NCBI GenBank assembly: GCA_964603415.1
Contig: CAZRUN010000001.1
Coordinates: 1-39,574, forward strand
Source: an uncultured Candidatus Saccharibacteria bacterium
Lineage (GTDB): Bacteria > Patescibacteriota > Minisyncoccia > Phycocordibacterales > UBA9973
Direction: 5' to 3'
DNA: 39,574 nucleotides
This document shows, one piece after another, positions 3,221-28,346 of the stretch; the stretch's first letter is position 1; each line of letters begins with the position of its first letter. Position numbers and translations under genes: made by a program. A model generated the notes under the pieces. The model did not search any database, was not told where the DNA came from, and was given only the letters and a program-made list of their open reading frames with translations.

Positions 3221-3593
3221 AATAGACTATTTTATCTGCTATCTCTTTTGCTTTTTCAAACGTGAGTGACTTCTTACGGTTCGTCATGCGAGCGTGTACG
3301 AAGTTGTTCACAGTTATCAGCACGAACGCTTTAGGGTATTGGATAACAACGTACGCCGGAACTGGTGGCATATTGAACCCGTCACAAGGCTTAACTCTCG
3401 GATCAGCATCACTGAGTTTGAAGCATAATCCCTCTTCCTGTATTGCAACGAGTGCATTTACCTGATGATCCTCAACGGCAGAGAACGGTAAACTATCAGT
3501 AGTAGTCTGCTTGATTTCATACGCACAGTATATCTTATTTTGTTTCAAGTACTTCTCAATCCGTGGGGTTATAGAGGCTTCTCTTTTATTCAT
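3219..3593 (-). CDS. Hypothetical protein, possibly a small PD-(D/E)XK / VRR-NUC-like nuclease
   Basis: An E-x-K-type motif (AYEIKQ) is followed by DHQVNAL. The gene lies directly downstream of the SF2 helicase and overlaps it, a common helicase/VRR-NUC pairing in phages. The motif match is weak. Confidence 0.4.
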   Translation of the reverse strand: MNKREASITPRIEKYLKQNKIYCAYEIKQTTTDSLPFSAVEDHQVNALVAIQEEGLCFKLSDADPRVKPCDGFNMPPVPAYVVIQYPKAFVLITVNNFVHARMTNRKKSLTFEKAKEIADKIVY

Positions 3594-4869
3594 ATATCTT
3601 CTCGTTAAAATCTACACCGCTGTTAATAGTTTTATATGCTTGCTCGTCAATACTTCCTTTTTCTTTGACCACAAGGGATATGTACAGGTTCTTTTTAAGA
3701 GCATCAGCTCGGAGAACTCGACCATCACCTTGTATCTTATCAACTACCGCAGGGGAATACGAGGCATAAATAACACAGTCGCAGGTCTTAAACTCCCACC
3801 CAGCCGAGATACTTGATTGAACTACTACAATACATTTATCTACATGGTCAATAGTCTCAAGGATCTCTTTGCGGTTTTTTGTCTCACCTGTAATCGTATA
3901 TACGTTATACCCCTCTTGTTTCAGAGCGTCAGCTATAGCATACACCTGCCCTTTCCAGTTTGCAAACACGAGCATTTTATCGAACTCTTCAGCTCGTTCC
4001 AGTATGTACTCGATCTTTTCGTTGTTGAAATGCAGTGTTTTCTTTTTCAGCTCCTCCTCACGTTCATTGATTTTTACCGTCTCGTACGTGTACAGTATAC
4101 CGTTCTCAATAGCTCGTTGCTTGGCTCTACGTGCCATAGGGTCTGCCTCGCTTGTTACATGGTCTTTAATGGCTTGTTTTTGGCTCGTGGTGAGGCTTAC
4201 ATAGTGTACCAGGTGAGTTTGTGGGGGTACGTCAAAGTAATCGTGTAATGAGCCTGTATAGCCATAACGCTTGATGATCTCAAGTCTTCTATTCTCTAGT
4301 TCTTCATTTTGTTTAGCAAACCAAATCGATGTGAACCCTTTTTTGCGTTCTGTATAGTACTTGTTCCGGAAGTCCAAGTAGCTCCACTTCGCTCCGAATA
4401 GGGTTGCCATAGCGTACACGTTGAGCGGTTTTGTTTCAGATGCTGGGGTTGCGGTAAGTGGGTAGTAGCGATCCGGCTTGTGGGTTTCAAGGTACCATTT
4501 AAGTGCATCGAATAGCTGTGATGTCTGTGGGTATTTTACACCACGGCGTGTCACCTCCTTGGTATGTACCCCTGAGAAGAACTTATGAGCCTCGTCCACG
4601 ATTACCGTATCGAACCGTGGGAGTGTACGGTGCAGTTTCTTAAAGTCCTCTTTTGAGAGTACAGTTATATCCTTGTTGATCCCAAACTTTTTGTTCTCAT
4701 TTTCGAACTTCTGCTCATCACGCTGGGTCTTCAGCACTATCACGAGTGTTTTACCTTGTGCAAGTTCAAGTGACGTCCGAGTTTTAGCAGAGCCAGTACC
4801 TTGCCAAAGACCCTTCCACTTAGGATCATCGGCTATTATTTTTTTTTGATGATCGTAAAGTGGTATCAT
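3586..4869 (-). CDS. SF2 (DEAD/DEAH, SNF2-like) helicase
   Basis: Walker A-like GTGSAKT, the motif VIVDEAHKF, and a C-terminal helicase-domain-like region (VVVQSSISAGWEF). Confidence 0.85.
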   Translation of the reverse strand: MIPLYDHQKKIIADDPKWKGLWQGTGSAKTRTSLELAQGKTLVIVLKTQRDEQKFENENKKFGINKDITVLSKEDFKKLHRTLPRFDTVIVDEAHKFFSGVHTKEVTRRGVKYPQTSQLFDALKWYLETHKPDRYYPLTATPASETKPLNVYAMATLFGAKWSYLDFRNKYYTERKKGFTSIWFAKQNEELENRRLEIIKRYGYTGSLHDYFDVPPQTHLVHYVSLTTSQKQAIKDHVTSEADPMARRAKQRAIENGILYTYETVKINEREEELKKKTLHFNNEKIEYILERAEEFDKMLVFANWKGQVYAIADALKQEGYNVYTITGETKNRKEILETIDHVDKCIVVVQSSISAGWEFKTCDCVIYASYSPAVVDKIQGDGRVLRADALKKNLYISLVVKEKGSIDEQAYKTINSGVDFNEKIYE

Positions 4870-8591: not shown

Positions 8592-8816
8592 TTAAAACCA
8601 TGCACTTCTTGGATCAGGATTCATAAAAATCTTCATAAACCAAGGTGCTTTATTATAATTTTCTACCCATTCCTTATAAAAATTATCTTTAGGACACCAT
8701 GCAACGTGACAGAATGCTTTACAGCTTTGTGATTCGTTACAGTGTGTTCCTCTTATTACCTTCGCAGGAATAAACCTAGCTCCATATACGAAATCATTGG
8801 TATCGTTGTTTTTCAT
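8592..8816 (-). CDS. Cys-rich hypothetical protein (74 aa)
   Basis: ATG start; cysteines occur as HCNESQSCKAFCHVAWC. Confidence 0.6.
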   Translation of the reverse strand: MKNNDTNDFVYGARFIPAKVIRGTHCNESQSCKAFCHVAWCPKDNFYKEWVENYNKAPWFMKIFMNPDPRSAWF

Positions 8817-8820
8817 AATG

Positions 8821-9012
8821 TTATCTTATAGTGCACAGTGGGTCTGTAGGTGCACAATTAGGATCAAGTGTTTCGCCTTCTTTGTAGTATGGTTTTTTTT
8901 CACCTGATAATTTTGGGTAAAATATTAAAGTTGATATGTATAATATAAAAATTATAACAACCATTATAACTTCAAGATTCTTTTCAAACTGTGACTGTTT
9001 TTCGAATTTCAT
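8821..9012 (-). CDS. Hypothetical single-TM protein (63 aa)
   Basis: ATGA overlap with the upstream nuclease gene; TM segment VIMVVIIFILYISTLIF. Confidence 0.55.
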   Translation of the reverse strand: MKFEKQSQFEKNLEVIMVVIIFILYISTLIFYPKLSGEKKPYYKEGETLDPNCAPTDPLCTIR

Positions 9013-9626
9013 AGTTCTAAATTATTAATAAACTCTGCATAGGCGTCACTGATCTCAAGTGCGTTTTTCTTGATGCGTTCTCGCATTTTAACGACTTCAC
9101 GCTTATCGAACTTGCGTTTAAAGACCTGTGACTTACCTGTAAACTCGATCCGTTCGTCTTGTCCGTTGTATAGTCCCATCTTTTGAGACTTATCTTCCTT
9201 GGTTTCGAGCCAAATCAGCTCTGCATACTCCGGCATAGTGCCTGTAAGTGCCTCTAATGCGGTCGCATAGAAGGCTAGTTGCCCGTGTTTCTGTACCTTT
9301 GCCTTAGTCCAAGGGTGTTTCCCTGTCTTATATTCTAGTACAAGGTTCTTTATTGTGTCGTAGGAGTCAATGAATCCGAGGATCATAACCCCGTCAATAT
9401 CTACATTAAACTTAAACTCAACTGAGTTATAGATTGGGAGATCCGGGAAGTCCTTCTTATAGGTACCGTCCTCAACTGATTTAGCGAACGACTTTCCGAA
9501 ACGAAGGAATTTAGTGTCTAATCGTTTTCCTCCCTCGAAGTATTCTCTTTTGAAACGTTCTTTATTACTTTCCCATGTAGTCATTGCTGACCATGAGAGA
9601 TATCCACGTGGGAGGGTTATAGTCAT
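9009..9626 (-). CDS. PD-(D/E)XK nuclease, RecB/Cas4-like (no Cys cluster)
   Basis: GFIDSYD ... LVLEYKTGK gives the D...ExK motif. HGQLAFYATAL gives the QxxxY motif typical of RecB-family nucleases. Confidence 0.75.
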   Translation of the reverse strand: MTITLPRGYLSWSAMTTWESNKERFKREYFEGGKRLDTKFLRFGKSFAKSVEDGTYKKDFPDLPIYNSVEFKFNVDIDGVMILGFIDSYDTIKNLVLEYKTGKHPWTKAKVQKHGQLAFYATALEALTGTMPEYAELIWLETKEDKSQKMGLYNGQDERIEFTGKSQVFKRKFDKREVVKMRERIKKNALEISDAYAEFINNLEL

Positions 9627-11245: not shown

Positions 11246-13717
11246 TTAAAAATTATCCATTTGATAAAGAGTTTTTTTATTAATATTGCTTGCAACCATA
11301 TAATGGTCATGTATATCAATACCTTCAGTTTTCATTTTACCACCATGCTTTTCTCGTGCAATAATTTGAAACTTCTTATCACGTTCTGATATTCGTTTTA
11401 TTTCAGATGTAAATCTTCTATATGCTACAGGTTTCTGTCCGTTGTTTTCTACGTAACTACGATATGTTTTATACAGTACTTCGGTATAAATATGTGTAGC
11501 TTCTTTTGGATAAGTAGCCTCGCTAATAAATGCAAACACTGTACTATTATCTTCTCGGTATCCCTTAATGATATCTTCTTGTTCTTGTGTTTCTGTAAAC
11601 TTACCATTCTTTTCAAGTCTGTTAAGTCCTTCAAGTGCCCAATTTAGTATTCCTGATAATTCATGAGCAAGTTTACCTCCTGAAAACCGTAGTGTTGTGT
11701 CCGGGTGAGATCTAAAATTATTTCCAAAATTCACTGCTAAGATACGGCGTTCTGTTCCTGACGAACTATCATCTACTCGTGGCATTTCATTCACTGCAAG
11801 AATAAACTTTGCTTGTGTTCTAAACTTAAACTGATCTCGGTACTTCATGTTTACAGTAATTTCTTCTCCTGAAATCAATGCTTTAAGTTTGTTTGAGTGA
11901 AAGTAGTTACCTGAAATTTCTTCAATAATATTTAATCTCTTTCCGATCAATCCCGCCATTCCGAATTGTCCGTAGATATCTTCAAGTGAAATATTAGATG
12001 TTGCATCTTTTCCAACAAGCATTCCAATGGTATCAGCAAATGTTGACTTTCCGTTCCCCCCGTCCCCAATCAAGTACAACGCTTTTGAGTGTTTCATTGA
12101 ACGTGTGAGACAGTATCCTGCATATTCTTGCAACATATTTCTTTTCAATTCCTCTTCTTGTCCTTCTGTCCAAGCTTGCAAGCTCTTATTCCACACTTCG
12201 CACTTAGCGTTTGGATCGTAATCAACATCAAACTGTACAAAGCTTACAAAATCAGGTGTGTGTTTTAATAGTTCTTTTGTTCTAATGTTCAATAGTCCAT
12301 TTTTAACGTTAATTATATCAGGGTCTTCATTTTCTGTTATGGTTGGAAGTATTGAAAGTAAACACATTATCTTATCAGATACACATCGACTCGTTCTATA
12401 AGTCCATAACATATCTTCAAGCATTGAAGATAGTATTAATGTATTAAGATTATCTCTATCTAACATTTTATAAACACCTCCCGAGTAGTTAAATACAACA
12501 CCTGCGTGGTTTTTTTTCAAGTTTGGATACTTATTTAATATCTCAATTTCATACGTTGAAAACCGGATCTTATCTTGTTCTCTCCGCTCCTTAGCGACTT
12601 CTGTATATGCTTTTTTAAGAGCCTCTTCTTCTTCTTGTGTTGTATTGTGCTTTATAATTTCATTATTCTTTCCAAATACGCAATTATTATCATAAGCCCA
12701 TTCAACAACCTTCTTAACTTCGTATCCACCACGACCTTTTTCTTTCACGATTCCATGCCAACCAGTCTTGGTAATATGTTTTACTGTCTCTTCCTTACTC
12801 CAACCTGCCATACGTGCTAGTGCACTTGCTACGATCATTGCTCCGTGTCTTGAAGTGTTTGGTGGTAGTGTACGGTCATCACCACTAAGTATTGCCTTAA
12901 ACGAAGGTCGTTCTTCAAGTGGGTACTTACTATTAAGTGCTTGAAAAAAGTTTGCTGTTTCGTTGCTGATAGTAACAATATCACCTCCAGTAATACGGTT
13001 CTTACTTGACGCAATACTACTTAATCCGTTTGAAACACTTCTCTCTACTGTAGTATCAGGTGTTGATAATGCGATAATCTCCTCAACCTGATTCATACTG
13101 TATCGCTTTGACAGTTCTTTTTTAATTATATTAATAGTAAAAGGTGCCTTATCGTATCCTTCTTTATATAAATTATCTGTTTTTTTCCAATACTTAGTCT
13201 GAGGAATACGTAAAATTCTTGTAAGATCTTTTACTACGTTATCAGCTTTAAACCATGATACTAGTTCTTGTTCTATAAACAACCATTGTTGTTTTTTCTT
13301 TTCCCATTCTTCTTCACTGTAATCATCTTTATATATTGTCTCATCAAGTAACCAATACAGATGATATCCTTTCATTGTCTCAATAATATAAGTAGGAGCA
13401 AATACTGCTGATATTTTATCAAGCTCTAATTGATCTTTACGGTTATCAATATCAATAAAAAATGAATTAATACATGTAAGGTCGTTTAATGTACAACTTT
13501 TGTTTTTTGCAAAATTAGCAAACCCGTTTACTGTAAAGTAACTTTCGTATCCAAGGCTATTAAATTCTTCTATTTTTTCATAATCTGATGTAAGCTCAGG
13601 CTTTCTACTATTGCCTGTTATGTCAATAAATCTAAACACATGGTCTGGAAACATTTCAAGAAATTCATCTCTCTTCTTTTTTTCCGTTGCGGTTAATATA
13701 TTTTTTTTATTATCCAT
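11246..13717 (-). CDS. Bifunctional primase-polymerase (AEP prim-pol) fused to a D5/P4-type SF3 helicase
   Basis: The N-terminal region has FFIDIDN (DxD motif) and KGYHLYW (sxH motif). The C-terminal region has the Walker A LIGDGGNGKSTF plus P4/D5-like sequence. The ATG at 13717 is preferred over the TTG at 13732. Confidence 0.9.
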   Translation of the reverse strand: MDNKKNILTATEKKKRDEFLEMFPDHVFRFIDITGNSRKPELTSDYEKIEEFNSLGYESYFTVNGFANFAKNKSCTLNDLTCINSFFIDIDNRKDQLELDKISAVFAPTYIIETMKGYHLYWLLDETIYKDDYSEEEWEKKKQQWLFIEQELVSWFKADNVVKDLTRILRIPQTKYWKKTDNLYKEGYDKAPFTINIIKKELSKRYSMNQVEEIIALSTPDTTVERSVSNGLSSIASSKNRITGGDIVTISNETANFFQALNSKYPLEERPSFKAILSGDDRTLPPNTSRHGAMIVASALARMAGWSKEETVKHITKTGWHGIVKEKGRGGYEVKKVVEWAYDNNCVFGKNNEIIKHNTTQEEEEALKKAYTEVAKERREQDKIRFSTYEIEILNKYPNLKKNHAGVVFNYSGGVYKMLDRDNLNTLILSSMLEDMLWTYRTSRCVSDKIMCLLSILPTITENEDPDIINVKNGLLNIRTKELLKHTPDFVSFVQFDVDYDPNAKCEVWNKSLQAWTEGQEEELKRNMLQEYAGYCLTRSMKHSKALYLIGDGGNGKSTFADTIGMLVGKDATSNISLEDIYGQFGMAGLIGKRLNIIEEISGNYFHSNKLKALISGEEITVNMKYRDQFKFRTQAKFILAVNEMPRVDDSSSGTERRILAVNFGNNFRSHPDTTLRFSGGKLAHELSGILNWALEGLNRLEKNGKFTETQEQEDIIKGYREDNSTVFAFISEATYPKEATHIYTEVLYKTYRSYVENNGQKPVAYRRFTSEIKRISERDKKFQIIAREKHGGKMKTEGIDIHDHYMVASNINKKTLYQMDNF

Positions 13718-13726
13718 AGTGAGTAT

Positions 13727-13816
13727 TCTCAAGCGACAGTATTTCCAACTTCAGGGAAGAAATACCGTCACTTGAGAACTGAAGTTATTTTTTTCTACTG
13801 GTTCGACAACCAGTAG
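13727..13816 (-). promoter_or_regulatory. Structured 5' leader of the primase mRNA with mutually exclusive hairpins
   Basis: Hairpin A pairs TCTCAAG.GAC.GTATTTC (13727-13745) with GAAATAC.GTC.CTTGAGA (13759-13777). Hairpin B pairs AACTTCAG (13747-13754) with CTGAAGTT (13779-13786). Hairpin C is CTACTGGTT-CGAC-AACCAGTAG (13795-13816). Confidence 0.45.
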
Positions 13817-15570: not shown

Positions 15571-16956
15571 ATGGAAATAAACCCAACCAAAAAACAAGCA
15601 GAGGCTTGGAACTTATTACTTGATAATACAACTAAGTATGTTGTATTTGGAGGATCAGCCGGGGGTGGAAAAAGTTGGCTTATTTGTGAATGGTTACTGA
15701 CTCAATGTATAGCACACCCAGGATCAAAGTGGTTTGTTGGTCGTGACGAATTAAAGAAGATTATGTCATCGACGTTTCAAACGTTCATTAAGGTATGTAA
15801 TTTTCATAAGATAGATTCTAGTTTGTGGAAATTAAACGGGCAATATAACTATATCGAGTTCACAAACGGCTCGAGAATCGACTTGTTGGACCTTAAACTA
15901 TTACCTACTGACCCATTATTCGAACGATTTGGGTCGATGGAGTTTACTGGAGGGGCTATTGAAGAAGCCGGAGAGGTTCATGCAAACGCTTTTGAGATCT
16001 TAAAGTCACGTATTGGGCGACATATGGCTGATTCATGCTATCCAAAGATACTTATTACTTGCAACCCAAAGAAGAATTGGTTGTATTATGACTTCTATCT
16101 GCCTTGGAAAGAGCAAAGATTGGTATCACCGTACGCTTTTATTCATGCAGCCTACAATGATAACCCGTATACAGCTGAAGTTTATGGTGAACAATTGAGT
16201 GGACTTAAAGATAAAGTGCAACGAGAACGTCTCATGATGGGTAACTGGGAATATGATGATGATGAGAATGCGATATTATCTTATCGTGACATTATGTCAT
16301 TGTTTGAAGTATCAGGAACGACAGGTGCTAAGTACATGACGGTTGATCCGGCATTCTTAGGAAAAGATGAGGCAGTTATTTATGTTTGGAATGGGTGGAT
16401 TGTTGAAAAAATTATATCAATCCCAAAGACTGACCATGAAACATTATTAATGCTGATTGATATGTATTCAAAGCAATATGATATCCCAAGACGTAACATT
16501 GTAGCCGATGCAGTGGGTGAAGGAGCTTACTTACCTAACTTAATGCGTGGAATACGAGGGTTTATCGGTGGAAGTAGTGCGTTAGGTGATAAGGATCACA
16601 GGCTTGATGAGCTTAAACGACCGTTTTATGCCAACCTACGCAGTCAATGTATCTATGAAATAGCCCAAAAGATTAAATTAGGGCAGGTGAGAGTCGAGTG
16701 TGATGATGAAGCTATCAAGGTAAAGCTCGTACAGGAGCTTGAACAGTGGAAGTTGAAGGCAGTTGATGATGATAGAAAGGTAGCAATCATAGGCAAGGAC
16801 GAGATCAAGGCGTCAATCGGACGTTCAACTGACTTCTCAGACTGTTTATCAATGCGAATGTTCTTTGAACTTGATGGAGTGAAACCAGTTTCGAGCGATG
16901 TTGCTCGTAGACAATTACAAGTAAACAAACAAAACTTCAATAAGTGGGCAATCTAG
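15571..16956 (+). CDS. terL: Terminase large subunit
   Basis: Walker A VVFGGSAGGGKSW. The size (461 aa) and the position between TerS and the portal also fit. Confidence 0.85.
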   Translation: MEINPTKKQAEAWNLLLDNTTKYVVFGGSAGGGKSWLICEWLLTQCIAHPGSKWFVGRDELKKIMSSTFQTFIKVCNFHKIDSSLWKLNGQYNYIEFTNGSRIDLLDLKLLPTDPLFERFGSMEFTGGAIEEAGEVHANAFEILKSRIGRHMADSCYPKILITCNPKKNWLYYDFYLPWKEQRLVSPYAFIHAAYNDNPYTAEVYGEQLSGLKDKVQRERLMMGNWEYDDDENAILSYRDIMSLFEVSGTTGAKYMTVDPAFLGKDEAVIYVWNGWIVEKIISIPKTDHETLLMLIDMYSKQYDIPRRNIVADAVGEGAYLPNLMRGIRGFIGGSSALGDKDHRLDELKRPFYANLRSQCIYEIAQKIKLGQVRVECDDEAIKVKLVQELEQWKLKAVDDDRKVAIIGKDEIKASIGRSTDFSDCLSMRMFFELDGVKPVSSDVARRQLQVNKQNFNKWAI

Positions 16957-21274: not shown

Positions 21275-21676
21275 ATGGCAACACAAGCAAATTATCGCAA
21301 TAACGGAGCTATTTCTAAAAAGAAAGCTTCTACTGCATACAAAGTTGGTGACTTCCTTACTACTGATAGTAACGGATTCTTGGTACCAGCAGGAGGTGTA
21401 GCAGGTAAACTTGTTGGAATTTCTAACGAAGAAATTACAGCATCTTCATCTGACTACGCTTCTACACGAGATCTTAATATCTCAGGAGGTGGTTCACAAG
21501 TTGAATTCGAAATTCCAGTTATTACCGGAACAGCAACTCAAACATTAGTTGGAGAATTAGTAGATATCGATGCATCTGACTCACGAGGAGTTGATGTTAC
21601 AGCTTCTACTAACGACCAGATCCTTGTAACTCGAATCATCGATTCAGCTACAATCAAAGGAAAAATCGTTCTTTAA
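21275..21676 (+). CDS. Putative head decoration protein (DUF2190-like)
   Basis: 133-aa Gly/Val/Thr-rich protein immediately upstream of the major capsid gene. The pattern (GDFLTTDSNGFLVPAGG...GKLVGIS) resembles capsid cement proteins. Confidence 0.5.
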   Translation: MATQANYRNNGAISKKKASTAYKVGDFLTTDSNGFLVPAGGVAGKLVGISNEEITASSSDYASTRDLNISGGGSQVEFEIPVITGTATQTLVGELVDIDASDSRGVDVTASTNDQILVTRIIDSATIKGKIVL

Positions 21677-21707: not shown

Positions 21708-22727
21708 ATGAACAGCTCAACATACGGAAATACCAATACATTTCCAATGTACGCAAATAATATCAACCAGTTCATGGAAGATTATTTGTCACGTTACACT
21801 CCAGAATCTGCAGGACTTTTCATTTCACAAAACGTGGGAGAAAATGCTGAAGATGTAAAACTTGTTCGTGAACAGGACATGGAGTTCTACGCACAGGACA
21901 AACCACAAGGAACAGATGCACAGCGTCTTGCACTTGGAACTGGTTACTTCAAAGAAATCAAAGCTTACCGAATCGGTGCTCAATTCAACTTGACATACGA
22001 AATGCGTGTAGCACCACGATTCTCTCTTGGAGAAGCAGTATCAGAATTTGCTAAATCAGTACCATCTCGTATGGAACTTGATCGTCAACACTTCCTATCA
22101 TTCTCAAACGCAACTACTTATGTAAACATGAGTGGACGAACTGTAGATGTAGCAGGAGGAGACGGACTAGCAATCATTTCAGCTACTCACCCATTGGCTC
22201 ACTCAGCAATCACATGGTCTAACTTGGTTCCAGGTAACCCATCATTGTCTGTAACAGCTCTTGAATCAGCTGAAACACTTGGAGTTACTAACGTTTTGAA
22301 CAACTACGGAAACCCAGTACCTTACAAATTCACTCACTTGATTGTTCAAAAGCAATCACCTGAAACATGCCGTATTGCTACTGAAATCCTACGTTCATCT
22401 TCATTGGTTACACAAGCTAACCCAGGAGTTGTTAACACATTCAGTACAAAGTACAACTTGATGGAACTTTCACAAGTTGCAACTAACGCTATGGGTGTTA
22501 CTGACAACAGTAAATCTAAATGGTGGTTCTTAGCAGCACTTGGACAAGGATCACAACGATTCCGAGCTTACGAATTAGTATGGGAAGCACCTCACATGAA
22601 TGCTGCACCAGCTGGATCTAACAACGGAATTGATGCTTACAACGATGACATGACTTTCGGTATGCGTGCTCGATACGGACACGGAGTACTTTCAGCTCGT
22701 GGTATCATTGGTTCATTTGCTTCTTAA
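21708..22727 (+). CDS. Major capsid protein (by position and size)
   Basis: 339-aa ORF after the scaffold and decoration genes. It is followed by a strong RNA hairpin, which suggests a discrete abundant transcript end. Confidence 0.65.
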   Translation: MNSSTYGNTNTFPMYANNINQFMEDYLSRYTPESAGLFISQNVGENAEDVKLVREQDMEFYAQDKPQGTDAQRLALGTGYFKEIKAYRIGAQFNLTYEMRVAPRFSLGEAVSEFAKSVPSRMELDRQHFLSFSNATTYVNMSGRTVDVAGGDGLAIISATHPLAHSAITWSNLVPGNPSLSVTALESAETLGVTNVLNNYGNPVPYKFTHLIVQKQSPETCRIATEILRSSSLVTQANPGVVNTFSTKYNLMELSQVATNAMGVTDNSKSKWWFLAALGQGSQRFRAYELVWEAPHMNAAPAGSNNGIDAYNDDMTFGMRARYGHGVLSARGIIGSFAS

Positions 22728-22737
22728 TTATCAATAT

Positions 22738-22805
22738 AAGCCCATCGGGGGCTTATAGGGGCGAAAGCTTGTATTATGGTTTCCAAGCTATCCCCTACAA
22801 GCCCC
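22738..22805 (+). promoter_or_regulatory. Compound GC-rich stem-loop after the capsid gene (no U-tract)
   Basis: GGGGCTTATAGGGG (22748-22761) pairs with CCCCTACAAGCCCC (22792-22805). An inner helix pairs AGCTTG with CAAGCT. An alternative short hairpin is AAGCCC-ATCG-GGGCTT (22738-22754). Confidence 0.5.
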
Positions 22806-22820
22806 TGATGTAACACTACT

Positions 22821-23141
22821 ATGTCAATACAATACACACGTGGTCCATTGTCTTTTGAACCTGCATTATTTGATGCAAGTCTCAACGGTCAAGGGCTTAT
22901 CACTGAATGTCAAAAAAGTACAACTGGAGCACCTGCAGCTACTGCTGGGAAGTTTATTCCAGGAGCACTTGTTACAGCTAGTAACTCAGTGATCTGGCAG
23001 AACACAGGAACTACAGCTTCACCTGTTTGGACAACAAACAGTACAGGAGCTGGAGCAACAGGTCCTACTGGAGCAACTGGAGCAACTGGAGCAACTGGTA
23101 CTACTGGAGCTACAGGTCCTACAGGTCCTACAGGAGCTTAA
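22821..23141 (+). CDS. Collagen-like (G-x-T repeat, BclA-like) protein, 106 aa
   Basis: The C-terminus reads GAGATGPTGATGATGATGTTGATGPTGPTGA, which contains nine consecutive G-x-T triplets, preceded by a 75-aa globular region. Confidence 0.8.
   Translation: MSIQYTRGPLSFEPALFDASLNGQGLITECQKSTTGAPAATAGKFIPGALVTASNSVIWQNTGTTASPVWTTNSTGAGATGPTGATGATGATGTTGATGPTGPTGA
23046..23138 (+). repeat. 9-nt periodic tandem repeat encoding the G-x-T triplets
   Basis: ACTGGAGCA occurs three times in tandem, followed by ACAGGTCCT twice. All copies are in frame. Confidence 0.85.
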
Positions 23142-23201
23142 TTGAACTCTTTTACACTCACTTTATGGTGGGTGGATAAAGGGTTTAACCCCTTTAAAAC
23201 C

Positions 23202-24074
23202 ATGAAACTATCTTTATCAATGATTGTTAAAAATGAAGAAAACCATCTTACTACAGCACTTGAATCAGTTTCAGGTATTCATGAGATAGTTATTTGTGAC
23301 ACAGGATCAACTGATAACACAGTAGAACTTGCTAAAAACTACACAGATAAAGTATTTACTGATTACACATGGAATGATGATTTTGCAGAAGCTAGAAACC
23401 ATGCACTTGCAAAGTGTACTGGGGACTGGATTCTTATTGTAGACGCTGATGAGCGACTTGCTACACCTATTGAGGAAGTAATCAAGTACGTTACTGAGGC
23501 GGATCAGAAAGGGTTAAAAACAATTAGCTGTAAAGTGATTTCAGAGAAATGGAATCAGATGCACAGACAACCACGACTCTTTAAAAAATGCGATGAAGTA
23601 TTTTGGAAAGGTGCGATACACAACCATCTAAGCGTTGATGAGCATAACTACCAAGATATCGAAGTTTATTATGGATATTCAGATGCACACCAAAAAGACC
23701 CTGATCGAGCATTGAGAATACTTACCAAAGTAGTTAATGAAAAACCGGATCGTGCTAGAGAGAAATACTATTTAGCACGAGAATACTGGTATCGACACGA
23801 CTATACAACAGCTTTGCATTGGTACGAGAAGTATATTCAAGTATCAAAGTACCCGGCAGAACTTGCAGATGCTTACCTTATGTCAGCTAGATGCTTACAC
23901 GCACTAGGAAATATGGAAGAATCAAAGACACAATGTCTTAATGCAATTAAAGTGAACACGAATTTTAAGGAGGCTATCTTATTTTTAGCAAGCCTATCAG
24001 GACCTAAGAATAAGAAACGATGGACTGACTTTGCAGAGGGAGCAACCAATGAAGATGTCTTATTTATTAGATAG
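23202..24074 (+). CDS. Family-2 (GT-A) glycosyltransferase with a TPR-like C-terminal half
   Basis: Motifs LSLSMIVKNEE, ICDTGSTDNT and ILIVDADERL (DxD). The C-terminal region has TPR-like repeats (YYLAREYWYRHDYTTALHWYEKYI...). The ATG at 23202 is preferred over the TTG at 23142. Confidence 0.85.
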   Translation: MKLSLSMIVKNEENHLTTALESVSGIHEIVICDTGSTDNTVELAKNYTDKVFTDYTWNDDFAEARNHALAKCTGDWILIVDADERLATPIEEVIKYVTEADQKGLKTISCKVISEKWNQMHRQPRLFKKCDEVFWKGAIHNHLSVDEHNYQDIEVYYGYSDAHQKDPDRALRILTKVVNEKPDRAREKYYLAREYWYRHDYTTALHWYEKYIQVSKYPAELADAYLMSARCLHALGNMEESKTQCLNAIKVNTNFKEAILFLASLSGPKNKKRWTDFAEGATNEDVLFIR

Positions 24075-24145: not shown

Positions 24146-24514
24146 ATGTCAGTACCAAGAAATGTAAAAAAACAACCAATTACATGGACTTCAAACCTGT
24201 CTCAGCCAATACTCGTTACTGACTGGCGAAACATTGAAATCACTGTAGTAGGAACAGGAGACGTATCAGTCCTTGCATCAAAAGATAAGACTATTGATCC
24301 TATCGATTTTTCAAGTCCTTCAACGATTACCAACAGTTATGCGACTATCGCACTCTATGATGAAACAGTTACAAGTAGCAACTTTGTGACTACTTTAACC
24401 GTATCTGCATCTACTAAGATTGCAGAAATTGATTCTAACCTATTAACATGGATCGCAGTTTCACGATCAGCTGATACTGTTGATGCGTTCATTACTTACA
24501 GTGATAATCAGTAA
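24146..24514 (+). CDS. Hypothetical virion-module protein (122 aa, beta-rich)
   Basis: ATG-initiated ORF with its own promoter, immediately upstream of the fibre genes. Confidence 0.65.
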   Translation: MSVPRNVKKQPITWTSNLSQPILVTDWRNIEITVVGTGDVSVLASKDKTIDPIDFSSPSTITNSYATIALYDETVTSSNFVTTLTVSASTKIAEIDSNLLTWIAVSRSADTVDAFITYSDNQ

Positions 24515-26231: not shown

Positions 26232-28346
26232 ATGGCACGAAGAAAAGCAAAAGGAGATGGCGGAGGCGGAGGAGGCGGAGCTTTCTCATCAATCACAGGT
26301 ACACCTACAGAAGTAGCGTACTTTGATGCTACAACAGGAAACGGTACGTCAAACCCAGCATTTTGGGTAGATGAAACAACAGGATTTGATTTATTCGTTT
26401 ATGATAACGCACCACCTACTATTACTTATGGAGTAATTAACTCATCAGGTGTTACTGGTATTGACGACCTAACATACGCAGGTACATTTACAGGTGCAGA
26501 TACAGGGCTTGTTTCAACATTATATACCGTAACAATGGGTAAATCAGATGCCTTTACATGGACTTCTAACCAAGGAGGTTCAGGAGGTAGTACAGCACCT
26601 GTTACAGGATTCGCTCTTGATAACGGAATTACTATCGACTTACCATCTACAGGATATAACGAAACAGATGTTTGGACTTTCCAAATTGAAGTAATCAGTA
26701 ACGAGGTAGGTTCAGTATACACAAAAACGTTAAAACTTATCAGTACGGGTGATACTGGAACTATAGATATTAGTTCCCCAGCAAGTGCTAGTTATGGATT
26801 GGTATTACCACCAGCACAAGGTGCATCAGGAGAAACTCTTATCAACGATGGTTCTGGTAACATGTCATGGGGAAGTGGAGTGTTCTTGTTAGATACTACT
26901 GGTCCAGGTGGATTTGGTAACATCTACTCAAGTGATTCTGGATTTGTCCCAGGTACATCTGATGCAGTGTTTATTGCAGGTGAACAAGCAGGAATGGGGG
27001 CTACAGGAGATTTTACTGGTTCCCAATGGATTGGTCTAGGAGCAGGAAGTAGTTCAATAGATGCTGCCTATTCTGTATTTATTGGTGCAGGTGCTGGTGG
27101 GTCAGCGGAAAATGCAAATGGTGCTGTATTTATTGGAAGTGCAACAGGAGATTTTGCAATAGATGCTTTTGATTCTGTATTTATTGGTGGAGGTGCTGGA
27201 CAGGATTCAAATAATTCATCTAGTTCAAACTTTCTTGGAGTAAATGCAGGGAGTACCTCTGATGGAGTTGCTAATAACTATTTAGGAGCATATTCTGGTC
27301 AAGATGCTACTGGTAACTACAATAACTTCCTAGGTTTTGAAACAGGTAGAAATGCAACAGGTGCAGAAAACTCATTCTTTGCACAACGTGATGCAGGTAG
27401 AGATTCTGTTGGAGCAGACCATTCAATATTTATCGGAGAAAACTCTGGTAAAAATTCTGATGGTGCACAGTATTCAAATTTCTTAGGTTTTGGTTCTGGT
27501 CAATTATCAGTAGACGTATCAAATGCAAACGTATTTGGTCGTAGTGCAGGTTATGATTCTGAAGATTCTCAAAACGTAAACTGGTTTGGTCAAAATGCAG
27601 GATACCAAGCTTTCGGTGCATCTAACACAAACTTCTTTGGACAAGGTGCAGGGTATCAAGCGAATAACAGTAGTAACGCAATTGCAATCGGAGCGGGAGC
27701 AGGGGCATTGATTGACGGAGCAAGAAACGCAATCTTCCTTGGTGCTCAAGCTGGTTATCTTGATACAGTGGATAACACTGGAAGTTCTGATGACTACTCA
27801 ATCGCAATCGGTGGTCTATCTTCAACAGGTGGATTCTCAAACAGTATTGCTTTAGGTGGACGAGCAACAAACACAGCTACAAATCAGCTCATGCTTGGTT
27901 CAAGTACACGACCTATCAATGAGATTACTCTTAACGGTAACAGTGATGACAACATCATTACGTATACAAAGAAAATCACTTCTATTCCATCAGCAGTAAA
28001 CGCAATGAACACAACTCCTATCCTTACTGGAATTACAGCTCCAAGTGGATATGCAGTGCAAATCCTTGATGTTTACGGAGGAGTTACATACAACACAACT
28101 CCATACGCAACTAACACAGGAGTAAACATTGCATTCTCTACAGCTCCAACTCAATCAGTATGGCAGAACGCAAACATTATTGGAGGTACAACTTCAGAAA
28201 TTAGACGATTCTCAAAAACAACTGGTTCAGGTGCAGAAGTAGTAATTCCAAACGATGAACTTGTAATTACAAACATTGTTGGAGACCCTACGGCTGGAGA
28301 TAGTGACCTAAACGTATACATTACTTATAAGATAATCAAACTATAA
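26232..28346 (+). CDS. Tail fibre / receptor-binding protein 2 (paralogue of fibre 1 with an extra C-terminal domain)
   Basis: It shares the MARRKAK N-terminus with fibre 1, carries a G7 tract, and has a longer array of the same repeat. It has the homologous NQLMLGSSTRPINE segment plus about 150 extra C-terminal residues. Confidence 0.75.
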   Translation: MARRKAKGDGGGGGGGAFSSITGTPTEVAYFDATTGNGTSNPAFWVDETTGFDLFVYDNAPPTITYGVINSSGVTGIDDLTYAGTFTGADTGLVSTLYTVTMGKSDAFTWTSNQGGSGGSTAPVTGFALDNGITIDLPSTGYNETDVWTFQIEVISNEVGSVYTKTLKLISTGDTGTIDISSPASASYGLVLPPAQGASGETLINDGSGNMSWGSGVFLLDTTGPGGFGNIYSSDSGFVPGTSDAVFIAGEQAGMGATGDFTGSQWIGLGAGSSSIDAAYSVFIGAGAGGSAENANGAVFIGSATGDFAIDAFDSVFIGGGAGQDSNNSSSSNFLGVNAGSTSDGVANNYLGAYSGQDATGNYNNFLGFETGRNATGAENSFFAQRDAGRDSVGADHSIFIGENSGKNSDGAQYSNFLGFGSGQLSVDVSNANVFGRSAGYDSEDSQNVNWFGQNAGYQAFGASNTNFFGQGAGYQANNSSNAIAIGAGAGALIDGARNAIFLGAQAGYLDTVDNTGSSDDYSIAIGGLSSTGGFSNSIALGGRATNTATNQLMLGSSTRPINEITLNGNSDDNIITYTKKITSIPSAVNAMNTTPILTGITAPSGYAVQILDVYGGVTYNTTPYATNTGVNIAFSTAPTQSVWQNANIIGGTTSEIRRFSKTTGSGAEVVIPNDELVITNIVGDPTAGDSDLNVYITYKIIKL

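Follow-up and report, generated by a model that had tools for sequence, protein, structure and literature searches.

A probable glycosyltransferase and collagen-like protein cassette beside the major capsid gene of an uncultured phage

The late region of a 39,574-bp phage contig (CAZRUN010000001.1, 38% GC; the whole stretch analysed, referred to here as the window) contains two adjoining genes that raise the question of whether a phage might encode both a collagen-like protein of its own particle and the enzyme that glycosylates it. The upstream gene encodes a protein of 106 amino acids (aa) that ends in a run of Gly-x-Thr (GxT) triplets, and the downstream gene a 290-aa glycosyltransferase of family 2 (GT2) that continues into tetratricopeptide (TPR)-like repeats. 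An earlier note on this DNA had proposed the two as an enzyme-substrate pair, and the comparisons reported here suggest that they probably form such a cassette. This reading is preferred because the pair recurs in a second, unrelated phage backbone, the linkage between its members is patchy and co-varying, the enzyme is homologous to GmaR and SunS, and a capsid gene lies next door; linkage in cellular genomes and the precedent of SgtA-BclA3 provide further computational support.

The identity of the gene upstream of the pair was established from a structural model. The 339-aa protein it encodes has no match in Pfam or PHROGs, but its AlphaFold2 model, with a predicted local distance difference test (pLDDT) of 81.9 and a predicted template modelling score (pTM) of 0.78, gave a uniform result in a Foldseek search of the PDB, where all of the top 50 matches were HK97-fold capsid proteins of phages or gene transfer agents (E 8e-10 to 1e-7). 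The order portal-scaffold-...-133-aa protein-major capsid protein is also kept in relatives. As the model matches HK97-fold capsid proteins only, the gene pair is placed directly 3' of the major capsid gene, which is where the earlier note had put the small collagen-like gene.

The 106-aa protein is comprised of a globular N-terminal β-domain (the N-domain) and a short C-terminal tail. The AlphaFold model gives the N-domain six β-strands and a pLDDT of ~95, with confidence extending to about residue 73. When 1.84 billion representative proteins were searched with a profile, the family comprised at least 232 representatives (50% clustering), in which the domain is always N-terminal and contains the conserved motifs NTGTTASPVW and GAPxAxAG. 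The C termini of the 132 members that were classified differ: 30 have none, 68 share one common fibre-like class, seven carry a short collagen-like tail and one is a longer protein with a collagen-like stretch; short GxT tails make up about 6%. The N-domain has no sequence match and no significant Foldseek match in the PDB, and no matches among deposited phage genomes; in BFVD, a library of viral folds, it matches only the N termini of uncharacterised phage proteins of 330-970 aa. In the window, as in every group-A relative, its gene is located directly 3' of the capsid gene, and the domain is presumed to be a virion-anchoring module. The layout of the 106-aa protein, a constant anchor followed by a swappable exposed module, is typical of decoration and fibre proteins, while the fold is new and shows no sequence or structural likeness to known proteins of these kinds in the PDB, Foldseek or BFVD searches.

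The tail encoded at the 3' end of the open reading frame (ORF; 22821-23141) reads GAT GPT GAT GAT GAT GTT GAT GPT GPT GA-stop, with the triplets at 23052-23132, and is the only collagen-like run of five or more triplets in the window. The nine uninterrupted G-(A/P/T)-T triplets that had been described are therefore present. Equivalent tails with the end ...TG(P/Y)TGA are found in L024, L027, L028, L030/31, L049, L198, L204 and L218 (loci are numbered with the prefix L), and the end ...TG(P/Y)TGA-stop is common to most short collagen tails. At the nucleotide level, Tandem Repeats Finder identified a repeat of period 9 at 23050-23138 with 9.9 copies and 77% matches, in which the unit GGAGCAACT occurs three times and GGTCCTACA twice in identical form, the rest being variants; the 9-nucleotide (nt) tandem repeat is thus real, although the earlier description of it as near-perfect was an overstatement, given the variants between identical units. 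Three short-read contigs whose capsid protein is 100% identical to that of the window (L110-L112) all end inside the 9-nt repeat and differ from window positions 23050-23141 in unit order, in having GAT for GTT and in an extra GPT, and an exact-match scan of IMG/VR contained no near-identical contig for repeat comparison. Assemblies break at the repeat, which differs from one near-identical genome to another. Unit order that differs in contigs breaking within the repeat is a faint indication of the repeat-length slippage that had been suggested.

BclA has a C-terminal globular trimerisation domain that follows its collagen region. The 106-aa protein shows a different order, with its globular domain at the N terminus, and ends two residues after the last triplet, so that the trimerisation domain is absent. 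Its tail scores 19.5 bits with the Pfam Collagen model against a cut-off of 27.2, which is attributed to the shortness of the triplet run. Membership of the BclA family was ruled out on the basis of this score and of the early end of the protein. The GxT triplets that had been taken as a BclA hallmark are certainly present, but they are not specific to BclA, and TGP and TGA triplets are over-represented across bacterial and viral collagen-like proteins (PMC11923368). Judged by its sequence, the 106-aa protein is an analogue of BclA and not a member of its family.

The 290-aa protein encoded next is matched by Pfam PF00535 (Glycos_transf_2) over residues 6-122 with a score of 66.4 bits (cut-off 23.3; E 3.9e-18). 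Further toward the C terminus, TPR_19 (25.2 bits, cut-off 25), TPR_14 (23.3 bits, cut-off 23.5) and other TPR families match within residues 156-253, and designed consensus TPR proteins in the PDB also match this part. The motifs DTGSTDNT and DADE are present, and Asp33 (in CDTGSTD), Asp81-Ala-Asp83 (in IVDADE) and His140 are invariant across 25-32 homologues; Pfam and motif evidence consequently agree with the initial description of a GT-A family-2 enzyme fused to TPR-like repeats. The closest solved relative in sequence is GmaR (E 2e-26, residues 4-163, ~50% identity over the first 90 residues), followed by SunS (9e-11, residues 5-212) and the related chain 7msk (2e-10). Orthology to SunS was considered and ruled out, with a score of 52.9 bits compared with an equivalog cut-off of 350 (NCBIfam TIGR04195). 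No hydrophobic segment was found in the enzyme (maximum KD19 0.84). On these sequence grounds the enzyme is homologous to the protein and peptide glycosyltransferases GmaR and SunS, and it is predicted to be a soluble protein O-glycosyltransferase.

The enzyme has ~1400 homologues, most of those listed being 283-300 aa long, or ~430-500 aa when fused, usually to a methyltransferase. They start at an equivalent MK(L/I)S..., and those in deposited phages, at identities below 40% only, are found in jumbo phages, SPβ and unannotated contigs. In the public record the glycosyltransferase is given as 284 aa from Met7 (23220), where the family alignment favours the upstream ATG at 23202 (MKLSLSMIVKNEE). 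A large share of the window-type homologues (P0016, P0018, P0030 and others) are methyltransferase fusions of ~460 aa, and a methyltransferase-GT2 fusion at 8430-9590 of L024 directly follows a collagen-tailed protein. These fusions hint at methylated sugars, as reported for actinobacteriophages.

To relate the two genes across genomes, loci were collected by way of either the capsid protein or the N-domain, more than 80 in all; the association p values below are based on plain locus counts. Among these loci GT2-TPR genes were observed only together with a collagen-tailed N-domain protein (Fisher p = 0.005), with none in the nine long loci that have non-collagen N-domain proteins and none in more than 40 capsid-protein loci without an N-domain. 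The enzyme gene is located directly downstream of the collagen-tailed gene in the window (61 nt, across the 60-nt spacer) and in L027 (55 nt). L024 has a GT2-TPR gene 3.4 kb upstream and a methyltransferase-GT2 gene immediately downstream of its collagen-tailed gene, and in L049 a GT2-TPR gene lies 2.5 kb upstream, the upstream 456-aa protein of this locus being unrelated to the window capsid protein. The gene for a 122-aa protein, which follows the enzyme gene in the window, directly follows the small gene in enzyme-less relatives (its homologues are directly 3' of the N-domain gene in L026, L033, L044, L052, L057, L071 and others), and the enzyme gene therefore appears to be an insertion accompanying the collagen tail. 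Loci with both collagen tail and glycosyltransferase are interspersed with closer relatives that have no such tail (capsid identity 65% versus 61% and 36%), suggesting that the pair has been repeatedly gained or lost.

The closest homologues of the enzyme, at 60-64% identity, are found in a second, unrelated phage backbone. Immediately upstream of the enzyme in L028 (99 aa) and L030/31 (114 aa) is a protein consisting of the N-domain and a GAT/GPT tail, and a wider IMG/VR scan added the same cassette in L198, L204 and L218. Throughout these second-backbone loci, a (GxT)n-ended protein of 52-115 aa immediately precedes a window-type enzyme of 43-64% identity, and the remaining genes are unrelated to those of the window. 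The neighbours comprise a collagen tail fibre, a 460-aa protein, a 'virion structural protein', a peptidoglycan-binding protein and a homologue of an ejected protein; no identity for the 460-aa protein was obtained from PHROGs, Pfam, a PDB profile search or hhalign against the capsid alignment.

Linkage to collagen-like genes was also observed beyond these cassettes. Of 27 IMG/VR loci that have a full-length window-type enzyme, 17 contain a GxT collagen ORF no more than 5 kb away, compared with 10 of 55 for distant relatives (p = 1e-4). Cellular homologues of the enzyme have collagen-like genes within 5 kb in 23 of 80 loci, mainly in Clostridia and Bacilli, and within roughly 1 kb in about 20 of the 23. 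Moreover, the kind of tail co-varies with the kind of enzyme (p = 0.012): six loci pair GAT/GPT tails with the window-type enzyme, and three pair GYT/GFT tails with the L024-type enzyme, which has 24% identity to that of the window.

Several observations weigh against an enzyme-substrate cassette or against its placement on the capsid. In the second backbone the pair is surrounded by tail and particle genes with no recognisable capsid gene upstream, and from these gene neighbourhoods a neck or tail location would be as likely as a capsid one. No collagen ORF is present within 5 kb in 10 of the 27 close viral homologues of the enzyme, and L002 encodes the enzyme but no small protein. Conversely, L046 has the collagen tail and no detectable enzyme gene between the terminase and tail genes, on an error-rich contig, and in L044 and L048, both short contigs, the gene after the collagen tail is not a glycosyltransferase. 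The tail itself has a pLDDT of only 55-65 in the monomer model, and nine triplets are very short for a triple helix. Finally, glycosyltransferases of another sort, together with a tail-less N-domain protein, are found in L026, so that head-module glycosylation may have other targets.

Two loci are of interest for the head module and this junction in their own right. In L026 (a Logan SRR14126294 contig), positions 941-2946 contain a rhamnosyltransferase-like gene and a gene for a combined GT32/capsule-synthesis and pyruvyl-transferase protein, just upstream of the decoration-like and capsid genes; its N-domain protein is 84 aa long. This arrangement suggests a different head-module glycosylation system. 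In L032, a close relative, a gene for a NUMOD3/HNH homing endonuclease (8687-9325) occupies the position right after the small-protein gene, which indicates that the junction is a hot-spot for insertion.

For the enzyme-substrate cassette, we infer the acceptor, the sugar, trimerisation, the place in the virion and the biological role as follows. The soluble GT2-TPR enzyme would act in the cytoplasm late in infection, transferring the sugar of a host nucleotide sugar to the threonines of the (GxT)9 tail, with the TPR repeats gripping its protein substrate, a role also proposed for those of GmaR and SgtA. The N-terminal β-domain would anchor the 106-aa protein either to the capsid or to the head-tail junction, and three glycosylated tails could associate into a very short collagen-like triple helix of ~8 nm, projecting from the particle as a stalk that might serve in reversible adsorption or particle protection. 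Ac-(Gly-Pro-Thr)10-NH2 stays a random coil unless glycans are attached to its threonines (PMC11923368), and the short, hydroxyproline-free tail may likewise not fold without its sugar. As a wider proposal, which we put forward tentatively and regard as possible though short of probable, many uncultured phages would carry a dedicated SgtA/GmaR-like enzyme that O-glycosylates the GxT threonines of their own virion fibres, with threonine glycosylation replacing hydroxyproline and allowing a nine-triplet tail to fold.

The foremost alternative is that the enzyme is the product of an accessory 'moron' gene with another target, be it host envelope polysaccharide, phage DNA, the capsid or the two fibre-like proteins encoded downstream, and that it came to lie beside the tail gene by way of an insertion-tolerant junction. 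The homing endonuclease found at the same junction in L032 would fit this explanation, as would the other head-module glycosyltransferases of L026, which occur with no collagen tail. The family that matches the enzyme, PHROG 13126 (8e-41), is named beta-1,4-glycosyltransferase and filed under 'moron, auxiliary metabolic gene and host takeover'. Glycosyltransferases of aquatic phages are usually read as serving DNA protection or superinfection exclusion (PMC10202952), and the literature searched made no link between them and GxT-tailed proteins. Mycobacteriophages are, moreover, described as glycosylating capsid proteins (Freeman 2023, as cited in PMC11256854). However, the soluble, TPR-bearing enzyme is nearest to protein and peptide glycosyltransferases and not to polysaccharide synthases or DNA glucosyltransferases, and a scan of early genes revealed none for DNA hypermodification; glycosylation of DNA or modification of the host envelope by this enzyme is unlikely. 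Furthermore, an insertion hot-spot does not account for why the pair is found again in an unrelated backbone, why tail type co-varies with enzyme subfamily, or why cellular homologues of the enzyme often adjoin collagen-like genes. Taken together, these data make the accessory-gene explanation unlikely.

Alternatively, the enzyme could act on GxT repeats generally, or on several virion proteins, with the 106-aa protein as one of several substrates, an explanation to which we assign a rather low probability. Many close viral homologues (L193-L197, L200-L203 and L029) have long collagen-repeat fibres of 300-1000 aa in their neighbourhood instead of small N-domain proteins, and in L024 and L049 large collagen-rich fibres are encoded alongside a small tailed protein. 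In the window, however, no collagen-like sequence other than the small-protein tail is available, such that a broad enzyme and a dedicated one would coincide there, and the two explanations differ chiefly in breadth of specificity.

The spacer between the genes was considered separately. As had been described, the TAA at 23139-23141 and the ATG at 23202 are in the same frame, with no further stop in the intervening 60 nt, and a sigma-70-like scan was in agreement with the stated absence of a promoter; no intrinsic terminator was found between the two genes either. Most of the spacer is taken up by a predicted RNA hairpin, and another is located in the gap between the capsid and small-protein genes. 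Their z scores were calculated against 200 shuffles, none of which was as stable as either hairpin, and a U-tract is absent from both. The hairpin ahead of the small-protein gene may be an attenuator or a stability element, and the two together may grade expression downwards from capsid through small protein to enzyme. That the two ORFs are one gene, joined by read-through at 23139 or recently split, and yield a collagen-glycosyltransferase fusion, as the earlier note had entertained from the common frame and stop-free spacer and as the likewise in-frame pair of L027 might suggest, is highly improbable and was ruled out, since the enzyme homologues are free-standing or fused to other partners (a collagen domain is present in none of the 120 listed), the small-protein homologues of many lineages share one ...TGA-stop end, the pairs of L028, L030 and L031 are out of frame so that the in-frame state fits a 1-in-3 chance, and the spacer is occupied by a hairpin, unlike coding sequence.

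The surroundings of the pair are those of a phage late region, and the features discussed are collected in Table 1. The late region is on the plus strand, where the large terminase gene (15571-16956) is followed by that of a 655-aa portal-sized protein, scaffold-like and small proteins, and then the 133-, 339- and 106-aa proteins, the glycosyltransferase, the 122-aa protein and two fibre-like proteins. The sole family match of the 133-aa protein is a weak one to a PHROG scaffold family, and it may be a decoration or scaffold-related protein. The two fibre-like proteins share the N terminus MARRKAK.DG and contain many degenerate G..A....N.xFxG repeats; the C-terminal end of the 561-aa protein is RYNTTTSKFEGYDGTTWVDLN, to which PHROG virion-protein families match. 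Elsewhere in the genome are genes for an Amidase_2 endolysin (304-936), an SLT transglycosylase (1751-2185), a helicase (3586-4869, minus strand) and a primase-helicase (11246-13732, minus strand). The window contains no tRNA genes and no terminal repeat, no integrase or DNA-modification gene was found among its ORFs scanned, and neither a nucleotide match nor a capsid-protein match was obtained among 50,697 deposited phage genomes. A Shine-Dalgarno-like motif precedes one of 19 late genes (15571-37666), the leaders being A/T-rich; the scarcity of such motifs, together with the GC content, suggests that the host relies little on Shine-Dalgarno sequences and could be, e.g., a member of the Bacteroidota.

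Table 1. Coordinates of the features in and around the gene pair (window numbering)
Feature	Position	Strand	Evidence
133-aa conserved protein	21275-21676	+	precedes capsid gene in every relative
Major capsid protein, 339 aa, HK97 fold	21708-22727	+	AlphaFold2 and Foldseek
RNA hairpin, gap between capsid and small-protein genes	22743-22810	+	minimum free energy -39 kcal/mol, z -5.7
N-terminal β-domain of 106-aa protein, residues 1-77	22821-23051	+	AlphaFold, family profile
Collagen-like tail, nine GxT triplets, then GA and TAA stop	23052-23141	+	ORF translation
RNA hairpin filling most of 60-nt spacer	23142-23188	+	minimum free energy -21.7 kcal/mol, z -4.4
GT-A (family 2) domain (~residues 1-165) and about three TPR repeats (~residues 150-265), 290 aa	23202-24074	+	Pfam, PDB, PHROG
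122-aa conserved protein	24146-24514	+	homologues in relatives
Two adjoining fibre-like proteins, 561 and 704 aa	24523-26208 and 26232-28346		

GT2-TPR protein glycosyltransferases, GxT collagen-like repeats, the SgtA-BclA3 system and virion glycosylation in mycobacteriophages are all of known kinds. What appears to be new is a recurrent phage cassette in which a GT2-TPR enzyme is accompanied by a very small protein, GxT-tailed and belonging to a new N-domain family. To our knowledge, self-glycosylation of the virion in bacteriophages has been shown essentially only for some mycobacteriophages. If the wider proposal is correct, 'glycosylated viral collagen' would be a widespread and previously unrecognised feature of virion surfaces, and many phage glycosyltransferases now annotated with DNA protection or host conversion would be reassigned. 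The recurrence of the cassette suggests a different use for aquatic-phage glycosyltransferases, namely the production of glycosylated collagen-like fibrils on the particle, which would explain a large enzyme family, and it offers a testable reason for the over-representation of Gly-x-Thr in viral and bacterial collagen-like proteins. The small size of both substrate and enzyme makes the system tractable for studying the folding of ultra-short triple helices, with possible uses in engineered collagen materials and glyco-decorated phage particles.

In comparison with known systems, the 106-aa protein resembles Hoc, phi29 gp8.5, T5 pb10 and phage tail fibres in having an anchoring domain and an exposed, variable distal module, and its gene, which adjoins that of the major capsid protein within the head module, is placed like those of decoration and fibre proteins. 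We know of no dedicated modifying enzyme for proteins of the Hoc, phi29 gp8.5 and T5 pb10 type. GxT-rich collagen repeats are common in phage fibres (PMC11923368). Mycobacteriophages (Che8, Rita and others) use phage glycosyltransferases, often with methyltransferases, to modify their own virion proteins (Freeman et al. 2023, as cited in PMC11256854 and PMC13313380). Their glycans are carried by the major capsid proteins and their glycosyltransferase genes are located near the 3' end of the genome (PMC11256854), whereas the candidate here is a separate collagen-tailed protein, and these sources describe no collagen-like substrate.

Closer parallels to the enzyme are found among bacterial and prophage systems. 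In SunS/ThuS, of the sublancin system of the SPβ prophage, the GT2 domain leads into a TPR-like helical region that binds the substrate; the enzymes are encoded beside their peptide substrate and, in SPβ, are phage-borne, but they S-glycosylate a cysteine of a small secreted peptide. GmaR, the flagellin O-N-acetylglucosamine (GlcNAc) transferase of Listeria monocytogenes, has the same GT-A-then-TPR order and acts on a surface filament (PMC9638930); it differs in its length of 637 aa, its extra linker and anti-repressor domains, its regulatory role and a substrate that is flagellin and not a collagen-like repeat. The closest precedent is SgtA of Clostridioides difficile, a 358-aa protein with a GT-A domain and four TPR repeats that is encoded next to bclA3 and in vitro transfers β-O-GlcNAc onto the threonines of GPT-repeat peptides (PMC7157674). 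The two systems differ in their substrates, as BclA3 has a predicted mass of 58 kDa with a long collagen-like region and a C-terminal region absent from the phage protein, whereas the latter has 106 aa, nine triplets at its extreme C terminus and a new N-terminal β-domain; they also differ in setting, which is the spore in one case and would be the virion in the other. By their described layout, however, SgtA and the phage enzyme are alike, each with a GT-A domain followed by C-terminal TPR repeats and each encoded beside a GxT collagen protein.

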